Assembly (NCBI RefSeq): GCF_001447785.1
Contig: NW_015168098.1
Location: 188,789-252,788 of the forward strand
Length of the DNA: 64,000 nt
Origin: Gekko japonicus
Taxonomy: Eukaryota
Direction: 5' to 3'
Part shown: piece by piece, positions 14,506 to 58,426 of the stretch
Position numbering within the stretch: position 1 is the stretch's first letter
Layout of the letters: each line of letters opens with the position of its first letter
The notes under the pieces: generated by a model
What the model was told of the DNA's origin: nothing
Database searches by the model: none
Seen by the model: only the letters and a program-made list of their open reading frames with translations
Made by a program: the position numbers and the translations under genes

Positions 14506-15090
14506 AAGCAATTGATTCCTTGCAGTGAAAGCAATTGATTTACTGGAGACATCTGTCTCCACTTAGACAGGCAAAAACGATAGTAACATGAAAGGTAAAT
14601 GCTGGCTGTGTTCTGATGAAAACACCTCCTTCTGAAATTGGCTTTGTAGATGACTGATTTCTGTCCTCACAATACAAAATCAAAAGCAATTGATTCCTCG
14701 CAGTGAAAGCAATTGATTTACTGGGGAGTCCACAAAAGTCCCAATAAATGTATTTAATCATATGGAAGACTAAGTTTTTTCCCAAGGGATACCATAAAAG
14801 GGGGAGTACCTTGTATTTCCATACATACCAGTTGCTTGTGGGCCAGGTAAGAGCCCTGGATGGGCCAGTTCTGGCCCCCGGGACTTGTGTTTGACACTCC
14901 AGTCCTAAAGGGTCTAACTTCCCATTAAGACTCTCAGACAAAATATTATCCAAACGGCCAATCAATGACATCTGTCTCCACTTAGACAGGCAAAAACGAT
15001 AGTAACATGAAAGGTAAATGCTGGCTGTGTTCTGATGAAAACACCTCCTTCTGAAATTGGCTTTGTAGATGACTGATTTCTGTCCTCACA
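14506..15090 (+). repeat. Local A-B-A'...B' duplication
   Basis: 14548-14671 is identical by eye to 14967-15090; it is flanked by ~40-50-bp direct repeats at 14506-14546 and 14684-14724. Confidence 0.85.
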
Positions 15091-17622: not shown

Positions 17623-19604
17623 ACATGTGTGATGGACTGCACTTTTTAAGAGGCTTAGAAGTGCTGTACCGAGATTTGGCATTTGTAGACCTCCTCTTTC
17701 TTTGGCATCACAAAGTATTTTCATTTTGATCCTTGGTTTCTTGCCTGCCCAAACAAATTTTGACAACTCTTGTTGCCACTTGGCCAACAAATCCGTTTTA
17801 TGCAGAATTGGTATTGTTTGGAACAGGAACATCAAACGTGGTAGGACATTCATTTTTATAACTGATATTCTTCCCATCAGTGATAAGTTCATTTTATCCC
17901 ATTTCTTAAAATCTTGAGTCAGCTTAGTCCATAATTTCTCATAATTATTCTTATATAGGTCTATATTTTTTGCCGTTAATTCAATTCCAAGGTATTTTGT
18001 TTTTTTAACTACTTCACATTGTACCAGTTCTTGTAGTTCCACTTGTTTTTGTCTGATCATGTTTTTACATATAAGTTTTGTTTTATTCTTATTTACGTAA
18101 AAGCCGGCCAATTCTCCAAACTCCTTTATTTTTTGAAAAAGCAATGTCAATTTTTCTGTTGGGTTCTCCACTATAAACATTACATCGTCTGCAAATGCTC
18201 GATATTTGTATTGGTGTCCTTTATGTGTCAAGCCCTTTATTTCTTGATCGTACTGTATTTTTTGTAAAAGTATTTCCAATACCCAGATAAATAATAACGG
18301 TGATAACGGACAACCTTGCCTTGTTCCTTTCTGTACTTTGAAGTTATCTGTCAGTTCTTTATTCACATTTATTTTAGCTCTTTGTTCAGAATAGATAGCT
18401 TCAATACAATTTCTAAAATGTTGTCCCGCTTCAATCTTTTCCATCATCTGGTGCATAAAATTCCAATTAAGATTGTCAAAAGCTTTTTCTGCATCAACAA
18501 ACAGAAAAGCTACTTCTTTTTCTGGGTGCTTTTCATAATATTCAATTGCGTCCATTACTATTCTTACATTGTCTCTAATCTGCCTTTTGGGTAAAAAGCC
18601 CGCTTGATCTTCAGAAATTACCGTTTGTAAATAGTTTTTCACCCTTTCTGCAATAATTTTTGCAAAGATTTTATAATCGTTGTTCAAAAGAGATATTGGC
18701 CTGTAGTTCTTTACATTTGTTGAATCTTGTCCTTCCTTTGGAATCAAAGAAATAATTGCTTCTTTCCATGAGTCCGGCACCTTTTTGTTTTCTCTTATTT
18801 CGTTGGTTAAAGCTTCCAGGACCGGGGAAATTTCTTCTTTCATCTTTTTGTAGAATTTCGCTGTAAATCCGTCCGGCCCAGGCGCCTTCCCCAACTTTGT
18901 CTCTTCTATTGCCTTCTATTGAAATGTTCTTTTAAAAAAGCACCGGAAATTCTGCTTTTGGGACTTAAAATGGAAGAAGTCAATACGACTAAAAAGACTT
19001 TACTCTGGTACCTGATAGTGACAGCGAGAATGATTTATGCTCAGTTTTGGAAGACAGAAAAGGTACCAGAGGTTGAAGAATGGATACAAAAAGTTCTGTT
19101 CATGGCACAAATGGATAAGATTACAAAAAAACTGAATAACAAAGAAGACGATGAGTTTTTTGGAGAATGGAAGGACTTTAAAATTTATCTGGAAAAGAAC
19201 TGGGATGTGAAACAAAACTTAATATGTTTAGATCAATATTAAGTCAAATGATGTTATCTTTAGATTGTAATGATGAGAAACTGATATTGTTGATGATATG
19301 AAGTAATTTGGAGCAGGGGTGGAAGCATTGTGGGAAGCCATTGGAGGGAGGGGAGGAACTGGGAATGGGGTAGACAATTGATAGAATGAAAAGTTTTATA
19401 TGTTGTATTCCTGAGAAAATAAAAAATTTGTTTACCAAAAAAAAAAAAAGAAGTGCTGTACCGACAACTAAAGAACTGCGAACGGTTAATACTTGAGTCC
19501 ACCCTCTGTATACTAGGTTACACAGAAATTAACCCTTTACAGTCCTTTAGTTGTTGGTACAGCACTTCTAAGCCTCTTAAAAAGTGCAGTCCATCACAAC
19601 ATGT
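17623..19604. repeat. ~76-bp-arm inverted repeat interrupted by the L1
   Basis: Left arm 17623-17672 plus 19465-19490 is the reverse complement of 19528-19604. Confidence 0.85.
17673..19448. mobile_element. L1-clade LINE, 5'-truncated and 5'-inverted
   Basis: Minus-strand RT segment 17673-~18915 (KAPGPDGF, NYRPISLLN, GTRQGCPLSPLLF, FADD); plus-strand 3' segment ~18918-19448 with poly(A); 16-bp TSD agaagtgctgtaccga at 17657-17672 and 19449-19464. Confidence 0.92.
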
Positions 19605-38157: not shown

Positions 38158-38682
38158 TCTAAACAGATCAGCAGATAAACAAATATAAGGTCAACAGTCG
38201 TGTTAGTCTGACCCGCAATCAACAGTCATACAACTTATAAGAATTGCTGTACATGTATTGTGCTCTGAAGCATTACAATATGATACACAACTTAATAGAA
38301 TTTATAAACCAAGGTACAACGTCGTCTCCGGATTATTTACCAACGTTTCAAAAAATGAATCTTCTTCAGGAAATTTATAGAGGTGCCAAAGCTCTAATTT
38401 TCATAAAAGCTAGACAACAAGTCTTAAGCATATCACGATTCAGTAGGACGCTGATCTCAATTAACACACTGTGTTTTTTTCTGGATCCTAGGCGTCCTTG
38501 GTTTATAAATTCTATTAAGTTGTGTATCATATTGTAATGCTTCAGAGCACAATACATGTACAGCAATTCTTATAAGTCGTATGACTGTTGATTGTGGGTC
38601 AGACTAACACGACTGTTGACCTTATATTTGTTTATCTGTTTTAGGCGTGTGTGTCCAGATTTTTTTCTAAACAGATCAGCAG
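38158..38682 (-). mobile_element. Penelope-like remnant: 143-bp inverted arms, hammerhead-like core in spacer, 17-bp flanking direct repeat
   Basis: Arms 38172-38314 / 38496-38638; tctaaacagatcagcag at 38158-38174 and 38666-38682; minus-strand CTGAAGA...GAAACG at 38369-38344. Confidence 0.7.
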
Positions 38683-40480: not shown

Positions 40481-41437
40481 GATTGAGATTCTGGTAGGCC
40501 CATGGTGCATATTTTCTCTTCTATGCTCAGACACTTTGACTTACCAATGCTGTCTTCGAGGCTTCTAGCATTGGCATATTATCTCTTATATAAATAGCTC
40601 TGCCTGGATCAACTCATTCAAATGCTCTATTTCTCCCACTAAGATCTTCCTGCTGTCTCTTCTGTGCGGGATGTTAGATCTGTATCAACCTGAACAAGGG
40701 CTTCCTCCCTCCCCCCCACCAGATCCATGTGGAATGGGCTGCCTAGAACATTTAGAGGACTACATCATCTTCACATCTGTTCAGAATAAGGCTGTAAAGC
40801 GGAGTTCTTTAGGAAGTGCTTTTGTTTCCTCTGGTTTCATCGATGCCCTTTTGACAGGTTATCTGATAACCCCCCCCCCAGTGTTAAATTGTCACTTGAT
40901 ATTTTATTTTATTTTATTGTGATTTGCTGTGATCTCCCCCCCCCCATTTCATTTCAAATAAATAAACAGATTGACTAATCAAAGTGAAGGTGTTCAACAG
41001 GTGAAAGGTATAGAATGAGATAGATGGAATAAATATTAAACAGCTTTTACTACAGATTATGTCTGAGAATACCATGATGCTTTGATTAAAAAAAACACTC
41101 TTTAAAAAGGAAAAATAAAGGATCCTCTGTAATAAAGTAAAAAAAAAACCCATCCATCTGAAGTATATTAAGGATTTTTCACATATGAACATCCATGAAG
41201 ATGCCTTCTACTGAATCAGACCCTGGGCCCATTAGGGTCAGTATTGTCCACTCAGACTGGCAGCAGCTCTCCAGGGTCTCAGGCAGAGGTCCTTCCCTTC
41301 GCCTAAATCCCTATCTTTGTAACTGGAAGTGTCCAGGATTGAACCTGGGACTTTCTGCATGCCAAGCAGATGCTCTACCACTGAGCCACAGTCCCTCCCC
41401 TATAGATTGCTAAAATAATTCACAATTGTGTACCTTT

Positions 41438-41906
41438 TTACAGACTTTTCCCTAATTTGTTTCCTTTGAAAGTAGCCAGAACATTTTCCATAATCATATC
41501 GCAGGTCTTTTGAACGGTCTTTCTCAGGGCCTCCTTGACAGAATCATTCTTCAGAGTGAAGAGGAATGGGTTCAAGAAGGGGCAGACAATGGTGGTCAGA
41601 ACGGCCGGCACCTTGTGGGCATCCAGGGTCTCTTTCTGTGAGGGAGTTACATAGGTGAAGATGGAGATCCCGCTGGAGATAGATATCATTGTGAGGTGTG
41701 TGGCACAGGTGTTGAAGACTTTAATCCGGCTGGTGGTGGTGGGGATGAGCAGAATTGTTGAGATGATACACGCATACGAAATCAGGGTCAGGACCGCTGA
41801 ACCAACGATCACAAGAGAGGACAGCATGAAATCCATTAGTTCAATGAAACGGGTGTCGGTGCACGACAGCTCCAGCAGAGGTCCAGTGTCACAGAAGAAA
41901 TGGTTG
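41438..41906 (-). CDS. Olfactory receptor, 3' half (5' part lies in assembly gap); recent paralog of 49998-50990
   Basis: NHFFCDTGPLLELSC...KVFNTCATH...PFLNPFLFTLKN; open frame up to the gap. Confidence 0.85.
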
Positions 41907-42967
41907 NNNNNNNNNNNNNNNNNNNNNNNNNNNNNNNNNNNNNNNNNNNNNNNNNNNNNNNNNNNNNNNNNNNNNNNNNNNNNNNNNNNNNNNNNNNNNN
42001 NNNNNNNNNNNNNNNNNNNNNNNNNNNNNNNNNNNNNNNNNNNNNNNNNNNNNNNNNNNNNNNNNNNNNNNNNNNNNNNNNNNNNNNNNNNNNNNNNNNN
42101 NNNNNNNNNNNNNNNNNNNNNNNNNNNNNNNNNNNNNNNNNNNNNNNNNNNNNNNNNNNNNNNNNNNNNNNNNNNNNNNNNNNNNNNNNNNNNNNNNNNN
42201 NNNNNNNNNNNNNNNNNNNNNNNNNNNNNNNNNNNNNNNNNNNNNNNNNNNNNNNNNNNNNNNNNNNNNNNNNNNNNNNNNNNNNNNNNNNNNNNNNNNN
42301 NNNNNNNNNNNNNNNNNNNNNNNNNNNNNNNNNNNNNNNNNNNNNNNNNNNNNNNNNNNNNNNNNNNNNNNNNNNNNNNNNNNNNNNNNNNNNNNNNNNN
42401 NNNNNNNNNNNNNNNNNNNNNNNNNNNNNNNNNNNNNNNNNNNNNNNNNNNNNNNNNNNNNNNNNNNNNNNNNNNNNNNNNNNNNNNNNNNNNNNNNNNG
42501 GGTTTGATTCCCCACTTCTCCACTTGCACCTGGCTGGATGACCTTGGGCTAGCTGTAGTTCTGATAAGGAGAGCTTTGGGAAGACATTAGAGAGAGGTTG
42601 CATTGANNNNNNNNNNNNNNNNNNNNNNNNNNNNNNNNNNNNNNNNNNNNNNNNNNNNNNNNNNNNNNNNNNNNNNNNNNNNNNNNNNNNNNNNNNNNNN
42701 NNNNNNNNNNNNNNNNNNNNNNNNNNNNNNNNNNAAACACTTTTCGGGAACTCAACTAATGAGGACTTCTCATTTTGCTTTGCACACTTTACAGCTCCGT
42801 CAGGACGTCTCAAAGAGTAAACATGCCAGGAGCTCAGCCAAAACAATGTCAAGAATAACTACATCAAGATTTTGTATTGTTTTGTATTGTACTCATATCA
42901 TTTACTGGCTTTGCTTATGTTCATATATAATGAATGGATGCTAGTTAATACAGGGGATTTGTTATAA

Positions 42968-43700
42968 ATCCACAGCGAAATGCAGAAAATACTACAATGC
43001 TCAAAATAGCAAATATGAACCAAAATATGTCTAATAGATGTTGGAAATGTAAAAAACATGAAGGCTCATTTTATCATATGTGGTGGACTTGTGAAAAAGC
43101 TGTGGATTTTTGGATAAAAATCCACAGCGAAATGCAGAAAATACTACAATGCTCTTTCAAAAAAGCGCCGGAAATTCTGCTTTTGGGACTAAAAATGGAA
43201 GAAGTCAATGTGGGAAAAAAAACCTTATTCTGGTACTTAATAACGACAGCAAGAATGCTTTATGCACAATATTGGAAACTTGAGAAAGTACCAGAGATTG
43301 AGGACTGGATACAAAAAGTTCTGTTCATGGCAGAAATGGACAAAATTACGAAGAAATTGAACAACAAAGAAGATGAAGAATTTTTGGAAGAATGGAAGGA
43401 CTTTAAGAACTATCTGGAAAAGAACTGGGATGTGAAAAAAAGTTTACTGTGTTTAGAACAATATTAAGCTAAAAGATGTTATCTTTTAAAGAGATAAGAA
43501 ATATGATATCGTTAATTATGGAAATATATAAAAAGGTGGGGAAAGGGGTGAAAGCATTGCGGGAAGCCACAGGAGGGGGGAAGGAGTATAGACTGTAGGG
43601 GGAACAATTTTTTTTAATGTATTTTTATTTTTAAAGAACTATTGGCTAAATATTGATTACCTACAACTGAAAAATAATAAAAACTTTGTTTACCAAAAAA
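42968..43700 (+). mobile_element. L1-clade LINE 3' fragment with ~119-bp target duplication
   Basis: CWKC...HMWWTC zinc knuckle, poly(A); flanking repeats at 42866-42967 and 43699-43817; single-copy empty site at 53940-54058. Confidence 0.88.
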
Positions 43701-44949
43701 GATTTTGTATTGTTTTGTATTGTACTCATATTATCATTTACTGGCTTTGCTTATGTTCATGAAATGTACTTCATATATAATGAATGGATGCTAGTTAATA
43801 CAGGAAATTTGTTATAAGGAGATTTGTTATAATTATACAACTAAGTGTGTTAAAGATATAGAAGAATAATTTTCTTTGGTGTGCCCTATTTTTCCTATTG
43901 TAGTTCTGATAAGAGCTTTCCTTGAAACAGAGCAGTTTCTGTCAGAACTCTCTCAGCCCCATCTACCTCACAGGGTGTCTGTTGTGGGGAGGGGAAGGGA
44001 AAGGAGTTTGTAAGCCACTCTGAGACACCTTTGGGTAGTGAAGGGCGGGGTGTAAATCCAATCTCCTTCTCCTCCTCTTTTTCTTATTTCATTTTTAAGG
44101 ATTTTTTGAATTTTTTGACATGTGAACATAGGCTACATCAAGACATGAATATGCAATATTAAGGATGCCCGAATAGTCACATTTTAAACGTGAGTTGAGG
44201 TTGTGAGAATGCAGAATGCTGCATTAGCTGAGAGCAGAACAATACTTACATGGCAGACCAGGTGACATTTAAATCCATTTACCTCATCCTTATATCCTTA
44301 TTCTTCCATGCTGCCTTCTCTCTCGAATATTTAAGAGTTGCATTCCTTTACCTTGATCCCACAAAAATGGAGAAAAAATATGTGAAATCGGCTGAATTAA
44401 CAGAATGTAGTCCATCTAATGGATGGAAGACAGACTCCCTCCCTNNNNNNNNNNNNNNNNNNNNNNNNNNNNNNNNNNNNNNNNNNNNNNNNNNNNNNNN
44501 NNNNNNNNNNNNNNNNNNNNNNNNNNNNNNNNNNNNNNNNNNNNNNNNNNNNNNNNNNNNNNNNNNNNNNNNNNNNNNNNNNNNNNNNNNNNNNNNNNNN
44601 NNNNNNNNNNNNNNNNNNNNNNNNNNNNNNNNNNNNNNNNNNNNNNNNNNNNNNNNNNNNNNNNNNNNNNNNNNNNNNNNNNNNNNNNNNNNNNNNNNNN
44701 NNNNNNNNNNNNNNNNNNNNNNNNNNNNNNNNNNNNNNNNNNNNNNNNNNNNNNNNNNNNNNNNNNNNNNNNNNNNNNNNNNNNNNNNNNNNNNNNNNNN
44801 NNNNNNNNNNNNNNNNNNNNNNNNNNNNNNNNNNNNNNNNNNNNNNNNNNNNNNNNNNNNNNNNNNNNNNNNNNNNNNNNNNNNNNNNNNNNNNNNNNNN
44901 NNNNNNNNNNNNNNNNNNNNNNNNNNNNNNNNNNNNNNNNNNNNNNNNN

Positions 44950-45010
44950 CTTCCTTCCTTCCTTCCTTCCTTCCTTCCTTCCTTCCTTCCTTCCTTCCTT
45001 CCTTCCTTCC
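44950..45010. repeat. (CCTT)n microsatellite next to a gap
   Basis: Directly visible. Confidence 0.9.
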
Positions 45011-45059
45011 TCCTCTGACCTATATGTCTTAGGTAGTTTTAGTCAAACATGGCTGGGAA

Positions 45060-46000
45060 TACGAGAAAGAAACGAAGAATTCGCGCCAGAGAGCTATAAA
45101 GCCACATAAGCTGCGAAACAGCTGTTTTCCTGTATGTTGCCTGAACTCTCATGGTCTGGACTGAAAATGTCGCTAAACTGAGTCAATGTTCTACTCTCAA
45201 ATCTGCTAATAACTTTGGAACTAAAATATCAGCTGAAGACTCTGACCACTGTAGCATCAGAGGTTTAATCCAGTTCTGTCCCTCACTGTCGTACCAGGGG
45301 CACTCACATAAAACATAGCTTACAGATTCGATAACACCCAAGCCACAGCCACAGTATCTATCTGGGAAAGGTATGCCCAACAAGCGGCCTTCGGAAACTG
45401 AAGAGGGTAGTGCTTTTCGTCTTGAGAGCATAATTGCTCGCCCATACTTTGGGACTGTTAAGATGAACAAATAGATAGGAATTGTGAAGCTTGGAGGAAT
45501 CCCAATATAAAGGGAAGAACAAACCCTCCTAACTCTGCATATAGTACTCTTTACAGCTATCTTCATACTTTTTAAAATGATTTTACAAGCTGAAGGCCAT
45601 CCTAGAGAAGCAATTACATTTTCTGGGCATTGCATGACATTCAGTTCTTCTTCTGTTCCTTGTTTCCACCCACCAGAGAAATTATCATGCTTCATATAGA
45701 ACAGGAGGCTGTTATTCTCGGGGGGGGGGATATTTCAAGTCTCATGTGCAGAGCCAAAATCCAGGCTCTAGCTTTGATGGAGTGTTGGCCCACTTCTAAC
45801 CTGAGGATGGTACCTGCTATATATTTCAGTACTCCACAGATCTAATGTAAGAACTGTGTTAACAGTCGATCTTTGGTTTTATCTGTTTTATGCATCCAGA
45901 CTGCTGCTCCATATAATATTTGAGGTATCATCTTGGTGTTGAAAACTGTAATTGCAGCTGGCAGTTTTTGTCCACCTAAAGGCAGTCTAAACCACCATTT
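45060..46000 (-). mobile_element. Decayed non-LTR retrotransposon (RTEX-like) ORF 3' part; paralog at ~54325-55640
   Basis: LPSSVSEGRLLGIPFPDRYCGCGLGVIESVSYVLCECPWY zinc-knuckle-like motif; PQILYGAAVW. Confidence 0.5.
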
Positions 46001-47149
46001 GTTNNNNNNNNNNNNNNNNNNNNNNNNNNNNNNNNNNNNNNNNNNNNNNNNNNNNNNNNNNNNNNNNNNNNNNNNNNNNNNNNNNNNNNNNNNNNNNNNN
46101 NNNNNNNNNNNNNNNNNNNNNNNNNNNNNNNNNNNNNNNNNNNNNNNNNNNNNNNNNNNNNNNNNNNNNNNNNNNNNNNNNNNNNNNNNNNNNNNNNNNN
46201 NNNNNNNNNNNNNNNNNNNNNNCAAAAGGGTTGCTTGCAATCACACCCTATCCTTAAAATACAGATTTTCCATACAAACAGATACCCAGTCTTTCGCGAG
46301 CCTATGAAAAGCAGGTACAGACAGCATGCATAGGCAGAGAATTCTGAGCAGTAACAAACTTCCACCTTGACATTATACTTACCACTCAGCAGAAGAAACT
46401 GTTCTGGATGTATTGGCATTGTTAAATGAGAGGGATGCCTATGGTTTTAAAGGTACGATAACTCAGTGAATACTGTTCTTCACATTCTATGGTAGTAGAC
46501 TTTGGGGGAATGTTGGCGTTCCGGGGGGGGGCGTTCTTCACATTCTATGGTAGTAGACTTCTGGGGGAATGTTGGCGTTCCGGGGGGGGGGCTCTTTTAT
46601 AATCACACAGGGTGCACCTCTGAGATTAAGTTATATTTCTTTCCCCAAAGAATACAGAAATGTATTACTGGTCCAAAACCATTAGTCTGGTACCAGGGAT
46701 TGGATCCCACCAGAATACTTTGACTAATAACCGGCTAAATGAAATACATCTCACTCTGTAGGGTAAGTTGCACAAAATATTCAACCTATGGTTAAAGAAT
46801 TGCATTCATACTCTTTATTTAACGTGTGTTACTTTTTATTGAACTGTGTATCATACCCTGTCTTAAAGACCAAAAGAGTAATTTACATTAAGGGGAGGGG
46901 GGGCAAAACAAGTGTCTGACAATATTTTGCTACTTATTATTTAAATTGCCCTTCTTCTAGGCAGCTTGGCATGACCTCCATTGTCTGCGCACACCCCCTT
47001 ATTATTTTCACAACAGACTTGCAGAGTATGTTAGGCTGAGATATGGCTGATGGCCCAAAGACACCCACTTTGCTTCATAGCAGGTCCCCTCAGTCCTGCT
47101 CAGATACTTTGATCACTTTACCCTATTGGCTCTCTTCTCGGTTTTGGTC

Positions 47150-47335
47150 TTGGTTTTGTGCCATCAAGTCACAGCTGACTTACAGCAACCCTGCGGGGTT
47201 TTCAAGGAAAGAGACGTTCAGAGGTGGTTTTGCCACTGCCTGCCTCTGTATAACAACTCTGGACTTCCTTGGTGGTCTCCCAGCCAAATACTGACCAGGA
47301 CTGACCCTGCTTAGCTTCTGAGATCTGATGAGATT
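47150..47335 (-). mobile_element. 5S-derived SINE; paralog at 56780-57205 carries an extra ~240-bp insert with a (gtt)n tail
   Basis: ggtggtctcccagccaaatactgaccaggactgaccctgcttagcttctgagatctga. Confidence 0.75.
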
Positions 47336-48049
47336 GAGCTTCTCTTCTCTTCTTTGCTCTGTTCTGTATGCTGAACATAATAATGGCCTACAGCAGGGGT
47401 GGCCAAACTTGCTTACACAAACAACTAGTACACACACGTTTTTATTGGAATACATGCAAATTTGCTCTGTACTAACATTAAATGAGACTGCCGAAAATAA
47501 AAACAAAAGGGGTAAAAACAGATATTGATAATTATATTTATTTGTCCCATGATATTTGTTTGTTTGCTAATGATATTTATTTGTCTAAGAGAGAGAGGTG
47601 GAAAGAANNNNNNNNNNNNNNNNNNNNNNNNNNNNNNNNNNNNNNNNNNNNNNNNNNNNNNNNNNNNNNNNNNNNNNNNNNNNNNNNNNNNNNNNNNNNN
47701 NNNNNNNNNNNNNNNNNNNNNNNNNNNNNNNNNNNNNNNNNNNNNNNNNNNNNNNNNNNNNNNNNNNNNNNNNNNNNNNNNGTAAATAGATGGGGAGGGA
47801 GGGAGGCAGAGAGAGGGAGATCCAATAGATGAGGGAGGACAGAAGGAAGGAAGGAAGGAAGAGAAAGAGAAAGGTGGAAAGAATGAAAGAGGGGGAAAGA
47901 AAGAAGGAAAGGGAGAAAGAGAGAAAGAAACAAAGAACGCAAATAAATGGGGTAGGGGGGAGGAAGAGAGAAAAAGAGAGAGAGAGAGGAAGCAAGGAAG
48001 GAAGGAAGGAAGCAAGGAAGGAAGGAAGGAAGGAAGGAAGGAAGGAAGG

Positions 48050-49744
48050 TGTTAGGGAACAAGCCTGATATTTGTTTTATGGACTGCTTATTCCTACACA
48101 ATGGACTGTGCACATACACATAGGCTCACAGAACTGTACCCTTTAGGTCACCTGTTATGATGACACACATAGAGGGCGCCTGCACATACCTTACATGTAA
48201 ATAAGGTTTCAGCAATACAGTTGCCCAGCCTGGTGAAGAAGCACAAATCTCCATTATTGTGAGCAATGAAACAACAACTTTGGGAAGAAACAGCCACCAT
48301 AGCAAAACTACTTGTGGTCACGTATCACCCATCAACTGCTTTGTTCCTGAGCTGGCATTTCCTGCCAGATGGACATTTGGTTATCAATGGAACTGGCCAA
48401 CTTCATCAGCACAACAATGAAGCATCCTGACGCCTGGATTTTCACACCTGTCCAGATGCCAATACTTCGAGTAAGGTTTTAGGTTACAATATTGGCCATC
48501 CCTCCTGGGTAACCTCCCCTCCCTACCTGCAACCCATAGGATTGTTTTTGGTATGGACTAACAGGTAGGTGGGTCAAGAGGTTGGCACAGTTACCACCCA
48601 TCTCTTGAACCCACTAGAAAAGGAGAGAACCAGTTACCTGGCCCCTCCTACCTGGCTAGATAGCATCTCCCCCGTAACAACCCCTGTCTGCTTTTGCCCC
48701 TCTTAAGTCCCACTTGCTATCCCCAACCCTTGCCTCTACTATTGATCTCTTGATCTGCAGTCAAGAGACCCACACGTTCCGGCTGGTTCTGGTAGTGTGG
48801 ATTCCCTTTGTTTTCCATTTCTTCCCATCCATTCTTCCTTGGAACAACCAAGCTTCAAGACAGATAAGTATTGCCCACCATCACCCCTACCTGCTAATGC
48901 AACTGTGCTTATTTCCTACTGTAATTCTTAGGAACTTGATTGAATGTGTGAGTGCATCAGTATTGTTTTATGAGACATATTTCTAGTAAAAGACATCTAT
49001 TTTAACTACAACAGCTTCGTAATCCTTTACTGGTAACCCTTGGTGGGATCAGGACCTTGGTATAAATTGGCAAGAACCCATTTATACATTGCCAATTGCT
49101 GTAAATAAAGCTATTCGGCTAAAAGGAATTGGAGGCACCGCTGGGATTGCCTTGCGCGTGTGACGGTCAGCGAGTCAACACACTGTCTCTCGGATGTGCA
49201 GACGTAGAGGAATCGTTCCCTCCGGGGACCAGTGAAGGTTGTGTGAAAGGTTGCTGTCTACGTGCCTGGCTCTAGCAGAGCACTCTATTGTGTTTGGGTA
49301 TCTTTGTCTCTTTCTGTCCTGAAAGCCTTAGAGCAACTCTGCCCCGTGCTTCCGGTCTATCGTGGGTGGGCGACGAGATGAATAGTGTAGGACGATACGT
49401 TAGCCCACAGTTGCACCAAGCACTGCATACACACACGCACACACCCCAAGCTTCCCTGAGGGCGAGGCTGCACTCAAAAAGGGAAATTCTAGCTCTTAGG
49501 TTGGCTTTGCAAACAAAGCGACGCCGTGGTAGAGGTCCCCACATCAGAAACATTGTCTGGAAACCTCCAAATCAAGTTAGAGGTAACCTCGCCTAAGGGT
49601 AGGAACCACAATCCTCGACAGCTAGTTAGCGGTTACCCAGTCAGAGAAGTGTGGCCTTGGCCCCCTGCACTCTCAAAACCTGCACCCTGGTTCAAGATGC
49701 ACCTTGGGTGGGAGGGAGAGACCCCTGCCCTAAACTCAGGCTCC
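48050..49744 (+). mobile_element. ERV 5' end: LTR (~48050-49088), tRNA-Thr PBS (49130-49147), leader; truncated
   Basis: Starts TGTTAGG directly after (GGAA)n; candidate LTR end TTATACA; TGGAGGCACCGCTGGGAT is complementary to the vertebrate tRNA-Thr(AGU) 3' end as I recall it. Confidence 0.7.
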
Positions 49745-49997
49745 ATGAACATCCATGAAGCTGCCTTATACTGAATCAGACCCTGGGCCCATCAAGGTCA
49801 GTATTGTCCACTCAGACTGGCAGCAGCTCTCCAGGGTCTCAGGCAGAGGTCCTTCCCTTCACCTAAATCCCTATCTTTGTAACTGGAAGTGTCCAGGATT
49901 GAACCTGGGACTTTCTGCATGCCAAGCAAGTGCTCAACCACTGAGCCACAGTTCCTACCCTATAGATTGCTAAAATAATTCACAATTGTGTACCTTT

Positions 49998-50990
49998 TTA
50001 CAGACTTTTCCCTAAAACAAATTTGTTTCCTTTGAAAGTAGCCAGAACGTTTTCCATAATCATATCGCAGGTCTTTTGAACTGTCTTTCTCAGGGCCTCC
50101 TTGACAGAATCGTTCTTCAGAGTGAAGAGGAATGGGTTCAAGAAGGGGCAGACGATGGCGGTCAGAACGGCTGGCACCTTGTGGGCATCCAGGGTCTCTT
50201 TCTGTGAGGGAGTTACATAGGTGAAGATGGAGATCCCGCTGGAGATAGAGATCATTGTGAGGTGTGTGGCACAGGTGTTGAAGGCTTTAATCCGGCTGGT
50301 GGTGGTGGGGATGAGCAGAATTGTTGAAATGATACACGCATACGAAATCAGGGTCAGGACCACTGAACCAATGATCACAAGAGAGGACAGCATGAAATCC
50401 ATTAGCTCAATGAAACGGGTGTCGGTGCACGACAGCTCCAGCAGAGGTCCAGTGTCACAGAAGAAATGGTTGAGGCTGTTGGATCTGCAGAAGGACAACC
50501 TGCTAATCTGGATGGTGGGGCAGAGGACAGAGAGAAACCCACACAACCAAGAAGCCAGAACCATCTTGACACACACCTCGCCCCTCATGATGGTGTGATA
50601 ATGCAGAGGTTTACAAACTGCCACATAGCGATCGTAGGACATGGACGTCAAGAGCAAAAACTCCACGGTGCCCAACAAGAAGTAGAAGTAGAGCTGGGCC
50701 ATGCAGGCTGAGAAGGGAATAGATTTGTCACCGGAAAGGAGGTTCCACAAGAGCTGTGGACTGATGACGGAGGTGAACATGATGTCTAATACGGAGAAGT
50801 TACACAGGAAGAAATACATGGGAGTATGGAGCTGACTGTTTCCCAACACAAGGCAGAAGATTAGCATGTTGCCAGCCAGCGATGTGATGTACATAGCCAG
50901 AAAGACCAGAGCAAGCAGGATCTCTCCTTGGTGCCCAAGGGAGAACCCCAATAGGATGAATTTGGTCACAGTTCTGTTGAAGGTCTCCAT
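49998..50990 (-). CDS. Olfactory receptor, family-6-like, intact (330 aa)
   Basis: METFNRT; LHTPMYFFLCN, MSYDRYVAVCKPLHY, NHFFCD, KAFNTCATH, PFLNPFLFTLKN; probable acceptor ctctccacag upstream. Confidence 0.96.
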   Translation of the reverse strand: METFNRTVTKFILLGFSLGHQGEILLALVFLAMYITSLAGNMLIFCLVLGNSQLHTPMYFFLCNFSVLDIMFTSVISPQLLWNLLSGDKSIPFSACMAQLYFYFLLGTVEFLLLTSMSYDRYVAVCKPLHYHTIMRGEVCVKMVLASWLCGFLSVLCPTIQISRLSFCRSNSLNHFFCDTGPLLELSCTDTRFIELMDFMLSSLVIIGSVVLTLISYACIISTILLIPTTTSRIKAFNTCATHLTMISISSGISIFTYVTPSQKETLDAHKVPAVLTAIVCPFLNPFLFTLKNDSVKEALRKTVQKTCDMIMENVLATFKGNKFVLGKSL

Positions 50991-51307
50991 CTCTTGTCAC
51001 TTTTTGCCTGCGACTTAGTAAGGCCACCTGTGGAGAGAAGGCTGGTAGTTAAGGATTCCACAATCTCCAGATGGACTTGGTCAGAGCTCCAGGCTTTTGT
51101 GTTCACAAAGAGAATTGGAGAATCAATCGACTATTTCTGATTTCTGCTACTTTGGTTCTCTCCCATTTATAAAAATCTCAACCCAGGATTTTCTAGATCC
51201 TAATTTCTCATTTTCTCATCATCATCATCATCAATCAATCAGTTTGGTGTAGTGGTGAAGTGCATGGACTCTAATCTGGGATAACCAGGTTTGATTCCCC
51301 ACTTCTC

Positions 51308-52956
51308 TCTCTCTCTTTTTTTTTGTAAGTACCCAAGGGTACATTTTTATTGATTTTTTCATTATAAACTACAAACATACATAACAACAGACAAACACCT
51401 ACCTACAACTAAGAAACACAAAACATATAGCGAGAGGCTTATATTTAATATTATATCTTTGATTAACTATGTGTTAATTTTCTATCCTTTTATCTATCTT
51501 ACTGGCTTTTTCTTTTCTATGTTCTCAAATTTCCACAAATCAAGTTATTTCGCTTATAATATACCAGTCATAAAATCTCTTCCAAGTGTTCTGAAAAGTC
51601 CATTCAATTCCATCTCTCATCTCTAATGTCAGGTTATCATTCTCAGCCATTTCAAACAGTTTATTCACAAATTCTTGTTTCGTTGGAGTCTCCATTGTTT
51701 TCCAGTACTTAGCATATAAAATTCTTGCAGCTGTTTATAAGTGAACAATCAAATACCTGTCTGTTTTATCAAAATCTTTCGGAAATATATTCAGTAACAG
51801 TGTCTCTGGAGTAAAAGGAACCTTACATCTTATTATTTTTTGCATTATTTCATGTACCCATTTCCATAATCTTTTTGTTATATCACATAACCACCACATA
51901 TGATAAAAAGAACCAATCTTATTCTTATATTTCCAACATTTGTCTGAACAATTAACATTTTGTTTAGCTAGTCTGTCTGGTGTAATATACCATCTATAAA
52001 ACATTGTATACGTATTCTCTTTATAGGATACTGCATTAGTCAGTTTAACATTTTTCAGCCAAATCTGCTCCCATTCCTCTAGATTAATATTACGACCAAT
52101 GTTGTGGGCCCGTGCAATCATTTCCCCCCCCAAAAAAATTTCATCTATCATCACATCATCTAGTAAAATCTTATATAATTTATTTATCACTTTACTTTCT
52201 GCAGTTAATATAGTTTCTTCCAACTTAGTTATTTTATTATTAAATCCTAGCTTCTTGTCCTTCAGGTATATCGATTCCAATTGTGCTTTTCTCCACCCGG
52301 ATATCTGTTCTGGTATTTTAAGGTTATCTTTTTTATCCAAAATGTCCTGGTATCTTAACAGCTCTTCTCCTACATAAACATTCGGTAAAGTAAATGCCTC
52401 TAAAGGTATTATCAGTCTCAATCTTTTAGTATAAAAGTTTTTATGTATAAAGTCCCAGACCTTTAGTAATCCCGCTCTCAACCAGTGCTGCTTAAAATAC
52501 TTTTGGGAGCCTGCTTTCTCATACCATAAAAAAGCATTCCACCCTAACAGTAAGTCATGGCCTTCAATTTTCAAAAGTCTCTTATCTTCTAGTGTAATCC
52601 ATTCTTTAATCCATACCAGGGCTGCTGCTCTGTGATACAATAACCAGTTCGGAACGCCAAATCCTCCTCTTTCCTTTGCATCATGTAGCATTTCCAGTCT
52701 TATTCTTGCCCTTTCCCCTTGCCATATAAACTTAGATGTTAATTGGTCTAACTCTTTGAACAGCTTTTGATTTTGCAATATAGGGATAGTTTGAAATAGA
52801 AACATCCATCTAGGTAAAATATTCATTTTTATTGTAGCTATTCTTCCCATCATAGAGAGTTGCAGGTTTTTCCATTTTTCTAAATCTTGTTTAGTTGCTT
52901 GTAATAATGTTTTATAGTACATTTTCTGTGTATTACATTTATTTGTGACAATAATA
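51308..52956 (-). mobile_element. L1-clade LINE, 5'-truncated ORF2 C-terminal half
   Basis: LSMMGRIATIKMNILPRWMFLFQTIP, KERGGFGVPN, CWK...HMWWLC; poly(T) at ~51316-51324 on the plus strand. Confidence 0.9.
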
Positions 52957-53207
52957 AGGTTCCACAACAGTTGTGGATTGATGACGGAGGTGAACACGAT
53001 GTCTAATACCGAGAAGTTACACAGGAAGAAATACATGGGAGTATGGAGCTGACTGTTTCCCAACACAAGGCAGAAGATTAGCATGTTGCCAGCCAGCGAT
53101 GTGATGTACCTAGCTAGAAAGACCAGAGCAAGCAGGATCTCTCCTTGGTGCACAAGGGAGAAACCCAATAGGATGAATTTGGTCACAGTTCTGTTGAAGG
53201 TCTCCAT
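51735..53207 (-). pseudogene. Chimeric ORF: OR N-terminus (TM1-TM2, ~84 aa; 52957-53207) fused in frame to L1 ORF2 (~405 aa)
   Basis: METFNRT...LHTPMYFFLCNFSVLDIVFTSVINPQLLWNL|IIVTNKCN...; 490-aa open frame. Confidence 0.8.
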
Positions 53208-53431
53208 CTCTTGTCACTTTTTGCCTGCGACTTAGTAAGGCCACCTGTGGAGAGAAGGCTGGTAGTTAAGGATTCCACAATCTCCAGATGGACTTTGTCA
53301 GAGCTCCAGGCTTTTGTGTTCACAAAGAGAATTGGAGAATCAATCAACTATTTCTGATTTCTGCTACTTTTGTTCTCTCCCATTTATAAACATCTCAACC
53401 CAGGATTTTCTAGATCCTAATTTCTCATTTT

Positions 53432-53475
<44 letters not shown>
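53432..53475. repeat. (CAT)n microsatellite, expanded relative to the paralog at ~51216-51232
   Basis: Directly visible. Confidence 0.95.
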
Positions 53476-53477
<2 letters not shown>

Positions 53478-54825
53478 ATCAATCAGTTTGGTGTAGTGGT
53501 GAAGTGCACGGACTCTACTCTGGGAGGACCGGGTTTGATTCCCCACTTCTCCACTTGCACCTGGCTGGGTGACCTTGGGCAAGTCGTAGTTCTGATAAAA
53601 AGAGCTTTTGGGAAGACATTAGAGAGAGGTTGCGTTCATCCACATTATTGGCATTCCTCGCTGTGTCACAGCAAGAGACTGGTGACAAACGCCAACTGAG
53701 AGAGAGAGTTGAAAAAGACATACGAAACCACTGTTTAATCTTCACAAAGTGTGTTCTCTTTATCTTTTACATTCCTCAGAACTACATGTTTTCAAATGGA
53801 GGAGTGATAAACACTGTTCAGGAACTCATATAATGAGGACTTCTCAGTTTGCTTTGCACACTTTATAGCTCCGTCAGGACGTCTCAAAGAGTAAACATGC
53901 CAGGAGCTCAGCCAAAACAACGTCAAGAATAACTACATCAAGATTTTGTATTGTTTTGTATTGTACTCATATTATCATTTACTGGTTTTGCTTATGTTCA
54001 TAAAATGTACTTCATATATAATGAATGAATGCTACTTAATAGAGGAGATTTGTTATAAGGAGATTTGTTATAATAATACAACTATGTGTGTTAAAGATAT
54101 AGAAGAGTAACTTTCCTTTGTGCGCCCTATTTTTCCTATTGTAGTTCTGACAAGAGCTGTCCCTGAAAAAGAGCAGTTTCTGTCAGAGCCAGTTTGGTGT
54201 AGTGGTTAAGTGTGCGGACTCTAATCTGGGAGAACCGTGTTTGATTCCCCACTCCTCCACTTGCACCTGCTGATGTGACCTTGGGTCAGTCACAAGCTCT
54301 GGCACAGCTGTCCTTGAAAAAGGCCCAACAAGCGGCCTTCGGAAACTGCAGAGGGTAGTGCTCTTCGTCTTGAGAGCATAATTGCTCGTCCATACTTTGG
54401 GACTGTTAAGATGAACAAATAGATAGGAATTGTGAAGCTTGGAGGAATCCCAATATAAAGGGAAGAACAAACCCTCCTAACTCTGCATATAGTACTCTTT
54501 ACAGCTGTCTTCATAATTTTTAAAATGATTTTACAAGCTGAAGGCCATCCTAGAGCAGCAATTACATTTTCTGGGCATTGCATGACATTCAGTTCTTCTT
54601 CTGTTCCTTGTTTCCACCCACCAGAGAAATTATCATGCTTCATATAGAACAGGAGGCTGTTATTCTCGGGGGGGGGGGATATTTCAAGTCTCATGTGCAG
54701 AGCCAAAATCCAGGCTCTAGCTTTGATGGAGTGTCGGCCCACTTCTAACCTGAGGACTGTACCTGCTACATATTTCAGTACTCCACAGATCTAATGTAAG
54801 AACTGTGTTAACAGTTGATCTTTGG

Positions 54826-55504
54826 GGTTTTGGGGGGGGGGTTGTAAACATTTTATTTTTAGGATATATTCAACAAAGTCCAACATTTGTATTACACTTC
54901 TTATCCCTTTATATCCTACCCTCCTCCCTTTCCCCCCCTATGTATGGATTCCCACAATGCTACAACCTCCTGCATATCCTTAGGTTACTCTTAAGTACTC
55001 CTCGTTATCTCTACATATTCAACAGGTAACTCAATAGTTATCAAAGCAAAATAAATTGTCTCTCACATCCCAATATTTTTCCAAGTATTCTTTTAAATCT
55101 TTCCAGTCTTCAAAAAAGTCTTCTGCTGCCATGTTATTCAATTTCCTTGTAATCGTATCCATTTCAACCATGAAAAGTAGTTTTTTAATCCATTCTCCAA
55201 TTCCAGGAACTTCCTCCTGTTTCCAACTTTGTGCATATATCATTCTAGCATGTAACAATCATGTACCACATAGGCGTCCTTTTTGCCACATTAACCTCTT
55301 CCATTTTGAGCCCCAAAAGTAATATTTCTGGCTCTTTTTTAAATTTGCAGTTAACTATTTTTTCCATCTCTGCATGAATCTCAACCCAAAACTTCTTTGC
55401 TTTTTCAAATTTCCACCACATGTGGTAAAACGAGCCTTCTACTTTTTTACATTTCCAACATTTACTCGACATTTTTGTATTCATATTTGCAATCTTTTTT
55501 GGAG
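54826..55504 (-). mobile_element. L1-clade LINE 3' fragment, unit-2 specific
   Basis: KCWKCKKVEGSFYHMWW; 17-bp TSD taacagttgatctttgg at 54809-54825 and 55505-55521; empty site at ~45860-45880. Confidence 0.88.
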
Positions 55505-57261
55505 TAACAGTTGATCTTTGGTTTTATCTGTTTTATGCATCCAGACTGCTGCTCCATATAATATTTGAGGTATCATCTAGGTGTTGAAAACTGTAATTGC
55601 AGCTGGCAGTTATTGACCACCTAAAGGCAGTCTAAACCACTGTTTGTTACCATATGGCAACCCTTCATTACTAATTCACAGATTTGTTCATAATTGTCCC
55701 CCCCCCTTTCTAATGTTGTAATCTTTGAACTTATGTTCTTTATTGTGGTTTNNNNNNNNNNNNNNNNNNNNNNNNNNNNNNNNNNNNNNNNNNNNNNNNN
55801 NNNNNNNNNNNNNNNNNNNNNNNNNNNNNNNNNNNNNNNNNNNNNNNNNNNNNNNNNNNNNNNNNNNNNNNNNNNNNNNNNNNNNNNNNNNNNNNNNNNN
55901 NNNNNNNNNNNNNNNNNNNNNNNAGGTTGCTTGCAATCACATCCTATCCTTAAAATACAGATTTTCCATAAAAACAGATACCCAGTCTTTTGCGAGCCTA
56001 TGAAAAGCAGATAGACGGCATGCATAGGCAGAGAACTCTGAGCAGTACCAAAATTTCACCTTGACATTATACTTACTGGTACCACTCAGTAGAAGAAACC
56101 CGTTCTGGATGTAATGAAGCCAGCATAGGCATTGCGAAATGGGAGGGATGCCTATGGTTTTATAGTTATGATAACTCAGTGAATACTGTTCTTCACATTC
56201 TATGGTAGTAGACTTCTGGGGAAATATTGGTGTTCGGGGGGGGGCTCTTTTATAATCACACAGGGTGCACCTCTGAGATTAAGTTATATTTCTTTCCCCA
56301 AAGAATACAGAAATGTATTACTGGTCCAAAACCATTAGTCTGGTACCAGGGATTGGATCCCACCAGAATACTTTGACTAATGACTGGCTAAATGAAATAC
56401 TTCTCACTCTGTAGGGTAAGTTGCACAAAATATTCAACCTATGGTTAAAGAATTGCATTCATACTCTTTATTTAACGTGTGTTACTTTTTATTGAACTGT
56501 GTATCATACCCTGTCTTAGAGACCAAAAGAGTAATTTACATTAAGGGGAGGGGGGGCAAAACAAGTGTCTGACAACATTTTGCTATTTATTATTTAAATT
56601 GCCCTCCATCGTCTGCGCACACCCCCTTATTATTTTCACAACAGACTTGCAGAGTATGTTAGGCTGAGATATGGCTGATGGCCCAAAGACACCCACTTTG
56701 CTTCATAGCAGGTCCCCTCAGTCCTGCTCAGATACTTTGATCACTTTACCCCATTGGCTCTCTTCTAGGTTTTGGTCTTGGTTCTGTGCCATCAAGTCAC
56801 AGCTGACTTACAGCAACCCTGCAGGGTTTTCAAGGAAAGAGACATTCAGAGGTGGTTTTGCCCAATGCCTGCCTCTGGATAACAACTCTGGAGTTCCTTG
56901 GTGGTCTCCCAGCCAATAGTTTTTATTCGAGAGCTATTATTGCTTTAAATGCTGTATGAAATTGGAATTTGGGTGACATTGGTGGTTTAAGTTGCAATGT
57001 GAACCTTAAGGGAGTTATGGGATGGTTGTGAATGGTTGTGTGAGTGTATGAGTATGGTTGTAGATCACCGAATGATTGCACCTTTAATTTCATTGTACTA
57101 TGTACAATTACAATAAAGTATATTATTGTTGTTGTTGTTGTTGTTGTTGTTCTTGTTGTTGTCCAGGACTGACCCTGCTTAGCTTCTGAGATCTGATGAG
57201 ATTGAGCTTCTCTTCTCTTCTTTGCTCTGTTCTGTATGCTGAACATAATAATGGCCTACAG

Positions 57262-58426
57262 CAGGGGTGGCCAAACTTGCTTAATGTAAGAGCCACATAG
57301 CATAAACGTCAGATGGCTGAGAGCTGCAAGACACAAACAACTAGTACACACACATTTTTATTGGAATACATGCAAATTTGCTCTGTACTAACATTAAATG
57401 AGACTGCCGAAAATAAAAACAAAAGGGGTAAAAACAGATATTGATAATGATATTTATTTGTCCGATGATATTTGTTTGTTTGCTAATGATATTTATTTGT
57501 CTAAGTGAGAGAGAAAGAGAGAGAGGTGGAAAGAAAGAATGAAAGAGGTGGAAAGAAAGAGAGAGAGAGGCAAAGAAAGGAAATAAATGGGGGGAGGGGG
57601 AGGAAGGAAGGAAGAGAGAGAGAAAGGGAGAAAGAGAAAGAAAGGTGGAAAGAAAGTACCGTAAATAGATGGGGAGGGAGGGAGGAAGGAAGGAAGAGAG
57701 AGAGGGAGGAAGAGAGCCAATAGATGAGGGAGGACAGAAGGAAGGAAGAGAAAGAGAAAGGTGGAAAGAATAAAAGAGATGGAAAGAAAGAAGGAAAGAG
57801 AGAAAGAGAGAGAAACAGAAACAAAGAAAGCAAATAAAGGGGGGAAGGAGGAAGGGANNNNNNNNNNNGAGAAAAAGAGAGAGAAAGAAAAAGAGAGAGA
57901 GTAGAGAGAGGAAGGAAGGAAGGAAGGAAGGAAGGAAGGAAGGAAGGAAGGAAGGAAGGAAAAAGAAGTGGAAAGAAAGTAAATAGATGGGGGAGGGAGG
58001 GATGGAGGGGAAAAGAGAGAAAGAGAGAGAGGTAGAAATAAAACAAATAAATGGGGAGGGGGAGGGGAAGGGAGGGAGAAGTGTAAGGGGTAACTTTAAA
58101 TGTGTCCTCCAATACCCTCCCACACACACACATCCCTATGCCAGCTGACTTGGCTTGGAGAAGGGATTTAAAGAGACATATTCCTTCTCCAAGCCAGCTG
58201 GAGATGGTGTATGTGTGCTTTGAGAATGCATTTAAAGTTAAAGTTGTTTTCTTTTTCTGCTCCCGCCCCCCAAGCCTACTCAGGAAGGGGAACACTGACT
58301 GCGGAAGGGAAGACTGATCAGGGAGGCATGCCTCCCCTTCTGTTCCCCAGCCGTCCTTCCAGGAGCCACATAATATGTGTGAAAGAAGCTGCATGTGGCT
58401 CCTGAGCCACAGTTTGGCCACCCCTA
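57262..58426. mobile_element. hAT MITE carrying a long GA-rich tract (truncated paralog from 47394)
   Basis: TIRs caggggtggccaaact / agtttggccaccccta; 8-bp TSD gcctacag at 57254-57261 and 58427-58434. Confidence 0.85.

Follow-up and report, generated by a model that had tools for sequence, protein, structure and literature searches.

The window analysed here, a stretch of 64,000 nucleotides from Gekko japonicus contig NW_015168098.1 (forward strand, position 1 being its first letter), contains a 5'-truncated L1 that probably represents one insertion, the 5' end of which would have been closed by slip-prone synthesis far from the first nick. The structure on which this reading is based was confirmed in the assembly and comprises the following features.

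42555-42568 and 43900-43913, + strand: 14-bp duplication bracketing the host repeat, within a SINE (from sequence).
42570-42865, + strand: 5' part of a dispersed host repeat of ~580 bp, with an N run at 42607-42734.
42866-42967, + strand: left (5') copy of the duplication, 102 nt (from sequence alignment, and raw-read depth in run X17).
42968-43698, + strand: insert, a 731-bp L1 3' fragment between the left and right copies.
42968-43002, + strand: exact 35-nt duplicate of L1 43120-43154, a putative template jump; a second version of the locus, on scaffold C13035, lacks it.
43003-43467, + strand: C-terminal 154 open codons and stop of L1 ORF2, 5'-truncated (from translation).
43468-43700, + strand: L1 3' UTR, with AATAAA at 43676-43681 and a six-A tail at 43695-43700.
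43699-43817, + strand: right (3') copy of the duplication, intact, 119 bp (to 43832 if the duplication is 134 bp).
43818-43899, + strand: remainder of the host repeat, ending at the SINE.
53940-54058, + strand: empty site in the tandem paralogue, within a host-repeat copy at 53600-54146.

The left copy (102 nt) aligned with the right copy (119 nt) at E=3e-32 within the window. The L1 3' fragment between direct repeats described in the first-pass annotation was thus borne out, and its end was corrected from 43700 to 43698, the final two A of the tail being common to tail and target. Both small deletions reported for the left copy were found at short direct repeats. One removes TAT from TATTAT (counterpart 43729-43731 in the right copy) and the other removes 14 nt between TTCAT repeats (counterpart 43756-43769). 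The two copies also differ by two adjacent substitutions at 42955-42956. The insert begins with an internal L1 duplicate as had been noted, 42968-43002 and 43120-43154 being identical over all 35 nt. The right copy begins at the nick ACATC/AAGATTTT, which is TCTT/GA on the bottom strand. The duplication has its start at a site of endonuclease type, adjoins the A-tail and is represented once at the empty site. The target finishes with a tandem pair of 15-bp units, and for this reason two duplication lengths can be read: 119 bp, or 134 bp (to 43832) with one substitution and a third deletion, of 15 nt, that removes one tandem unit. Alignment scores were nearly equal (182.5 vs 181.2 for the 119-bp and 134-bp readings), and the length of ~119 bp for the proposed target-site duplication (TSD) is one of two equally readable values. 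The possible 15-nt deletion is weaker evidence than the other two because single-unit forms of the tandem are common across the host-repeat family.

The paralogue carries a single copy (53940-54058) and no L1, as first described, and lies in a tandem segmental duplication (window about 41185-48050 vs 49745-58000, mostly 85-98% identical by block) in which the L1 is confined to the first copy. A 13-bp equivalent of the 14-bp flanking duplication is found at the paralogue. Contrary to what the earlier description implied, the paralogue is not the sole empty site, since about 75 exist in the genome: a 29-nt empty-site pattern gave 77 hits, of which two were filled left copies. Two further repeats were observed in the window, a perfect 124-bp direct repeat (14548-14671 and 14967-15090, at a distance of 419 bp) and an inverted repeat of 143 bp (38172-38314 vs 38496-38638, 98.6% identical).

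The duplicated DNA had been taken for host sequence, and this part of the first description did not hold. It belongs to a multi-copy, non-coding, dispersed repeat of ~580 bp whose copies start at one fixed 5' position, vary at the 3' end and often occur as inverted partial pairs. A total of 296 candidates was obtained and 40 were scored; full-length hits were 92-100% identical, and with 77 empty-site pattern hits a unique host flank was ruled out. Flank duplications of 13-19 bp were present at 11 of 49 host-repeat loci. Several host-repeat copies end at the same SINE motif; the neighbouring SINE is presumably related to the squamate Sauria SINE, which it resembles. At one locus (C11208, L086:1159-1217 and 1699-1758) direct repeats of 50-60 bp with 93% identity, possibly another long TSD, lie on either side of a host-repeat copy that is itself within a SINE. 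The inverted partial pairs, fixed 5' start, variable 3' ends and 13-19-bp flank duplications give the host repeat the look of a non-autonomous Penelope-like element, a group with TSDs of about 10 bp for which inverted pLTRs are described in the passages covered of PMC3846280. No long ORF (RT plus GIY-YIG) was found in six frames of the paralogue copy, and a hammerhead ribozyme/Rfam search of the repeat returned six sub-threshold matches, none of them credible. As neither an ORF nor a ribozyme was found, the repeat, which resembles such elements in layout, was not assigned to them. No upstream coding region was common to 30 host-repeat loci, and the parent element was not found among them.

The insert belongs to an L1-clade LINE, judged by its poly(A) signal, A-tail and 5' truncation, and by the short TSDs of its family. 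Sister L014, which is 89.5% identical to the insert, matched residues 1048-1248 of human ORF2p (E=2.9e-11), and through this sister the L1 ORF2 C-terminal domain with its CCHC zinc knuckle was recognised. The insert by itself gave zf-RVT only, below the cut-off (E=0.018). Four sister ORFs were scanned for RVT_1; that of L017 contained it upstream in the same ORF (E=2.5e-07), and the three others, which are fragments, gave no hit. The closest sister, L004, differs from the insert by 6 substitutions and two small insertions over about 620 nt, and the small number of substitutions indicates that the insertion is young. Older L1 3' fragments are also present in the window at 18923-19357 (+) and about 55027-55496 (-), and are 80% and 73% identical to the insert.

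Twenty-nine sisters were retrieved, taken from the 30 best of 40 scored loci among 3845 candidates. The 5' junction was resolved in 15, the 14 that end in gaps being outside the tally. TSDs were 10-22 bp in 14 of these 15 and absent in the other; the 119 bp of the window exceed the usual length about eightfold. A BLAST test that recovers the 119 bp of the window found no long duplication abutting the junction in any of the 15, and long TSDs were thus rejected as a trait of the L1 family. None of the 29 sisters lies inside the host repeat. A target-specific Tx1-type LINE was rejected on this count, and also because the four inserts found at the same base are of different families.

These four were recovered with a pattern joining A-tail and target, which gave five hits: the window, the duplicate piece on C13035, and three independent inserts. 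The latter, on C4781 (L079), C16785 (L082) and C10 (L084, L095), are A-tailed inserts in the same orientation at the base corresponding to window 43699. The C4781 insert is a 383-bp L1 end from another family (76% identical over 135 nt) with a TSD of 19 bp. The insert on C16785 is A-tailed and 735 bp long, resembles none of the other inserts and has a TSD of 12 bp. The C10 insert, with a TSD of 17 bp, is ~3.95 kb long and unlike the window L1, has a 163-aa acidic frame near its 3' part and ends in a long A/T-rich tail (L084). Its start resembles what we take to be an L1 5' end motif, and we presume that it may be of a half-L1 type. A long TSD dictated by the target was ruled out by these values of 12, 17 and 19 bp in three unrelated inserts at the identical nick, and the long duplication is thus specific to one event.

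Another long duplication was observed on C17351 (L096:1431-2126). Here a 560-bp segment matches the C16785 locus at 99.3% (the 5' part of the host repeat together with ~207 nt from the start of the nested insert) and lies in a new place, without an A-tail and with a 5-nt microhomology at its 3' end. It is flanked in the assembly by a 78-bp duplication, the left copy of which lacks 4 nt; as in the window, a long duplication is thus paired with sequence loss from its left copy.

Several variants bear on the origin of the deletions. Neither the 3-nt nor the 14-nt deletion occurred in any of 37 other aligned repeat copies, and standing repeat variation was rejected as their source. In 35 complete cores of other repeat copies, indels of at least 3 nt numbered 4 per 57 substitutions. 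At this indel/substitution ratio, two such indels between copies that differ by one or two substitutions have P about 0.002-0.009, and the left-copy deletions therefore likely arose together. G at 42825 was found in the window and paralogue and in 0 of 27 other copies. G at 42956 was found in the left copy, the paralogue and the second tandem unit of the right copy, and in none of 37 others. The left and right copies also have G at 42937 in common, which agrees with a single locus; it recurs in 2 of 37 others, and that one of these is the inverted arm of C13035 itself counts against this reading. Taken with the scaffold geometry, the diagnostic variants favour an origin of both copies from one molecule.

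Against the structure it must be said that the assembly is of short-read type (191,500 contigs) and that 128 N precede the left piece, compared with 172 bases at this place in the paralogue. Raw run X17, from another sample and another study, gave a depth of 1.0 at >=98% identity across 42930-42968 and 0.62 in the preceding bin. As a binned depth, this matches one read over the 14-nt deletion and the L1 junction, and it argues against misassembly; intact aligned repeat copies could not give such depth. About one spanning read was observed, compared with 1.8 expected if the allele were fixed, from four raw runs at 0.7-fold coverage, in which about 1% of each run (4% of X18) was covered. This support covers the left junction alone; 43002/43003, 43698/43699, and the presence of both junctions on one read or contig lie outside it. 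Contigs of X1 and X2 gave zero depth on the deleted copy. They also lack the 42825 G present in raw reads of X15 and X16 and are therefore uninformative within the host repeat, including on polymorphism. Reading a polymorphism from their zero depth was rejected, since these contigs drop other locus-specific variants as well.

On a second scaffold, C13035 (L031; L046:4183-5783), the same deleted copy is joined to the L1 at 43120, without the 35-nt jump. The L1 junction is followed by 368 N, 253 bp identical to 43684-43936, and then more N; the gap agrees with the geometry of the window, from which 358 nucleotides would be expected between the left junction and the right flank. C13035 differs from the window at 42885 and 43260. 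At 43260 its L1 has the family-majority A (28 of 29 sisters), whereas the window and the closest sister have a rare T. The segment present in the window version alone has a T at 43115 that is common to one of the 29 sisters, again the closest. C13035 is probably a chimeric scaffold, in which its own repeat arms lead into the deleted copy, L1 and right flank of the window between gaps; it is possible that it is an allelic or converted copy of the window locus.

Because the duplicated DNA is a multi-copy repeat, a chimera of two loci had to be weighed, made by assembly or ectopic recombination from the left arm of C13035 and a right arm belonging to another L1 insertion. In favour of it, the junction recurs on C13035, where it runs without a break into unique sequence of that scaffold; the flank is a multi-copy repeat; N runs adjoin both loci; and the 42937 G in the inverted arm of C13035 means that the deleted copy could belong there. 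Such a chimera would nevertheless require that a repeat making up <0.01% of the genome (estimated from about 300 copies x 600 bp) received two L1 copies of 99.5% identity (1 difference in 206 nt) no more than 120 bp apart, and G at 42956 marks the lineage of the window locus. Moreover, the right piece of C13035 is identical to the window over its whole 253 bp, includes the repeat-SINE junction of the window and is bounded by gaps, and the majority A at 43260 fits a patchwork assembly path. We regard this explanation as unlikely. About equally unlikely is a two-step history, in which the L1 was inserted with an ordinary TSD of 12-19 bp and its 5' junction broke at a later time; error-prone repair with the downstream flank or another repeat copy as donor would then have lengthened the left copy and added the 35 nt. 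The short TSDs of the other three same-nick inserts, the about 75 empty copies available as donors and the two versions of the 5' junction held by the assembly all agree with it. Against these stand the exact start of the duplication at the nick and its continuation in register, the little time left by 6 substitutions in about 620 nt, and the lack of any short-TSD version among the 40 scored of 175 candidates.

Another explanation retains the long duplication as real and places the start of the insert at 43120, the 35-nt duplicate and 43003-43119 being over-extension during gap filling. C13035 has a form that starts at 43120, and the depth in X17 is compatible with either form. The T at 43115 is nonetheless a rare allele of the insert's own sublineage (1 of 29), the sister that carries it starts at 43079 and cannot supply 43003-43078, and a short form would also be expected from collapse of the 35-nt repeat or deletion between the two 35-mers. 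This is unlikely, although less so than the two explanations above. A single insertion with slip-prone closure of its 5' end, as suggested by the first-pass annotation, is the reading supported by the short TSDs of the sisters, the lack of the deletions in the 37 other copies, the lineage-specific variants of the left copy and the X17 depth over the left junction.

For this preferred reading the following course is proposed. The 3' junction is that of ordinary target-primed reverse transcription at TCTT/GA. Here the L1 endonuclease would have nicked the bottom strand and the A-tail would have primed a cDNA reaching at least 43003, with a second nick absent within the usual ~20 nt. One low-processivity tract would then have used 119-134 nt of the downstream target as template and slipped at direct repeats, losing 3, 14 and perhaps 15 nt. 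This tract would have joined the target to the L1 at 43120 via partial similarity (target end GGATTTGTTATAA; L1 upstream GGATTTTTGGATAAAA), extended over 35 nt of L1 and then switched to 43003 at 3-4 nt of imperfect homology. Strand invasion, with synthesis of the tract starting from the genomic end upstream, is a tentative choice that falls somewhat short of an even chance; a cDNA extended over a long overhang from a distant break is rather less probable. The two routes are inseparable by sequence. Distant second-strand cleavage or repair, as originally suggested, fits the locus, a distant second nick and strand-invasion copying being likewise indistinguishable by sequence.

What follows on published systems is limited to the passages of each paper that were covered. 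Top-strand nicks by ORF2p fall at +7, +11 and +19 (PMC7617806), and a boundary at +119 or +134 therefore needs another route. The locus thus resembles canonical L1 target-primed reverse transcription (PMC7617806, PMC2912911) in its bottom-strand nick, A-tail priming and 5' truncation, and differs in a boundary beyond the reach of the ORF2p nick. In HeLa cells up to 10% of recovered human L1 events had TSDs >100 bp, and most events in NER-deficient cells had large TSDs, ascribed to a distant second nick (Servant et al., PMC5223499). The gecko locus is like these de novo insertions in its endonuclease-type site (TCTT/g is tabulated there), A-tail and TSD >100 bp, and unlike them in being natural, inherited and from a non-human vertebrate. 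Deletions inside one TSD copy are not reported in the covered passages of PMC5223499. A literature search by title and start of abstract also found no report of deletions within one TSD copy; the supplements of large-TSD papers may hold such junctions.

Templated L1 insertions in tumours have templates <250 bp long and <=15 bp from the site, account for 22 of 3,598 insertions and are attributed to an SDSA-like switch (bioRxiv 10.1101/2024.08.27.596794). Local rearrangements of ORF2p-made ends occur in L1-expressing cells (PMC11702581). Both share with the gecko locus the copying of a local template into the 5' junction (bioRxiv 10.1101/2024.08.27.596794; PMC11702581). Unlike the tumour cases, the gecko template starts exactly at the nick and hence reads as a TSD; the locus also has clustered direct-repeat deletions and a 35-nt L1 duplicate in the same orientation, whereas internal duplications in tumours accompany 5' inversions. 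Zebrafish ZfL2-2 in chicken DT40 cells gave one long TSD (1228 bp) among 25 events in wild type (PMC2666801). The rarity of the long TSD is shared, and extra 5' nucleotides of ZfL2-2 are ascribed to template jumps (PMC2666801), while ZfL2-2 differs from the gecko L1 in belonging to another LINE clade and in being engineered. Long TSDs and local templated insertions are accordingly already published for cultured and tumour cells, and the gecko locus looks like a real, natural case of an L1 insertion outcome that is known but rare. It adds a slippage record in the 5' copy together with three same-nick controls.

The shared base of the host repeat looks like an insertion hotspot. Among 30 loci with the 5' part of the host repeat, five were filled at this base, by four events including that of the window, whereas the rest of the repeat showed no A-tailed insert with a TSD in this set. 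Other interruptions in the 30-locus set, and in a set of 33 loci, were elements of different kinds at scattered positions. At three control sites within the host repeat 0, 1 and 0 hits were obtained, the single hit being local slippage in the alignment. Three further events at one of four sites have P=0.016, and P=0.0003 against 15 candidate sites, both values being rough since sites are unequal in quality and inserts >1.5 kb are visible from one side only. The nick context is pyrimidine/A-A-purine, as in several sisters. No same-base insertion hotspot in a repeat was found in the literature by title and start of abstract. A bolder proposal combines two claims: that this base is a precise landing site for unrelated A-tailed retroelements (4 events, about 75 empty copies), and that the genome closes 5' ends by an error-prone long-patch pathway that leaves deletions in the upstream copy only, the 78-bp duplication on C17351 being a further instance. 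The repeat's own mobilising enzyme or structure would perhaps expose the nick at the shared base. We consider this combination improbable; if it were true, the locus would be a natural same-nick experiment recording the polymerase that finishes retrotransposition.

No function is implied for the duplicated DNA, which is a dead repeat. The three ordinary inserts at the identical nick indicate that target sequence does not decide the outcome of insertion. The long duplication, the slips in the upstream copy alone and the adjoining template jump may be read as a written record of L1 5'-end completion, and the slips point to low-processivity copying over two clean nicks.
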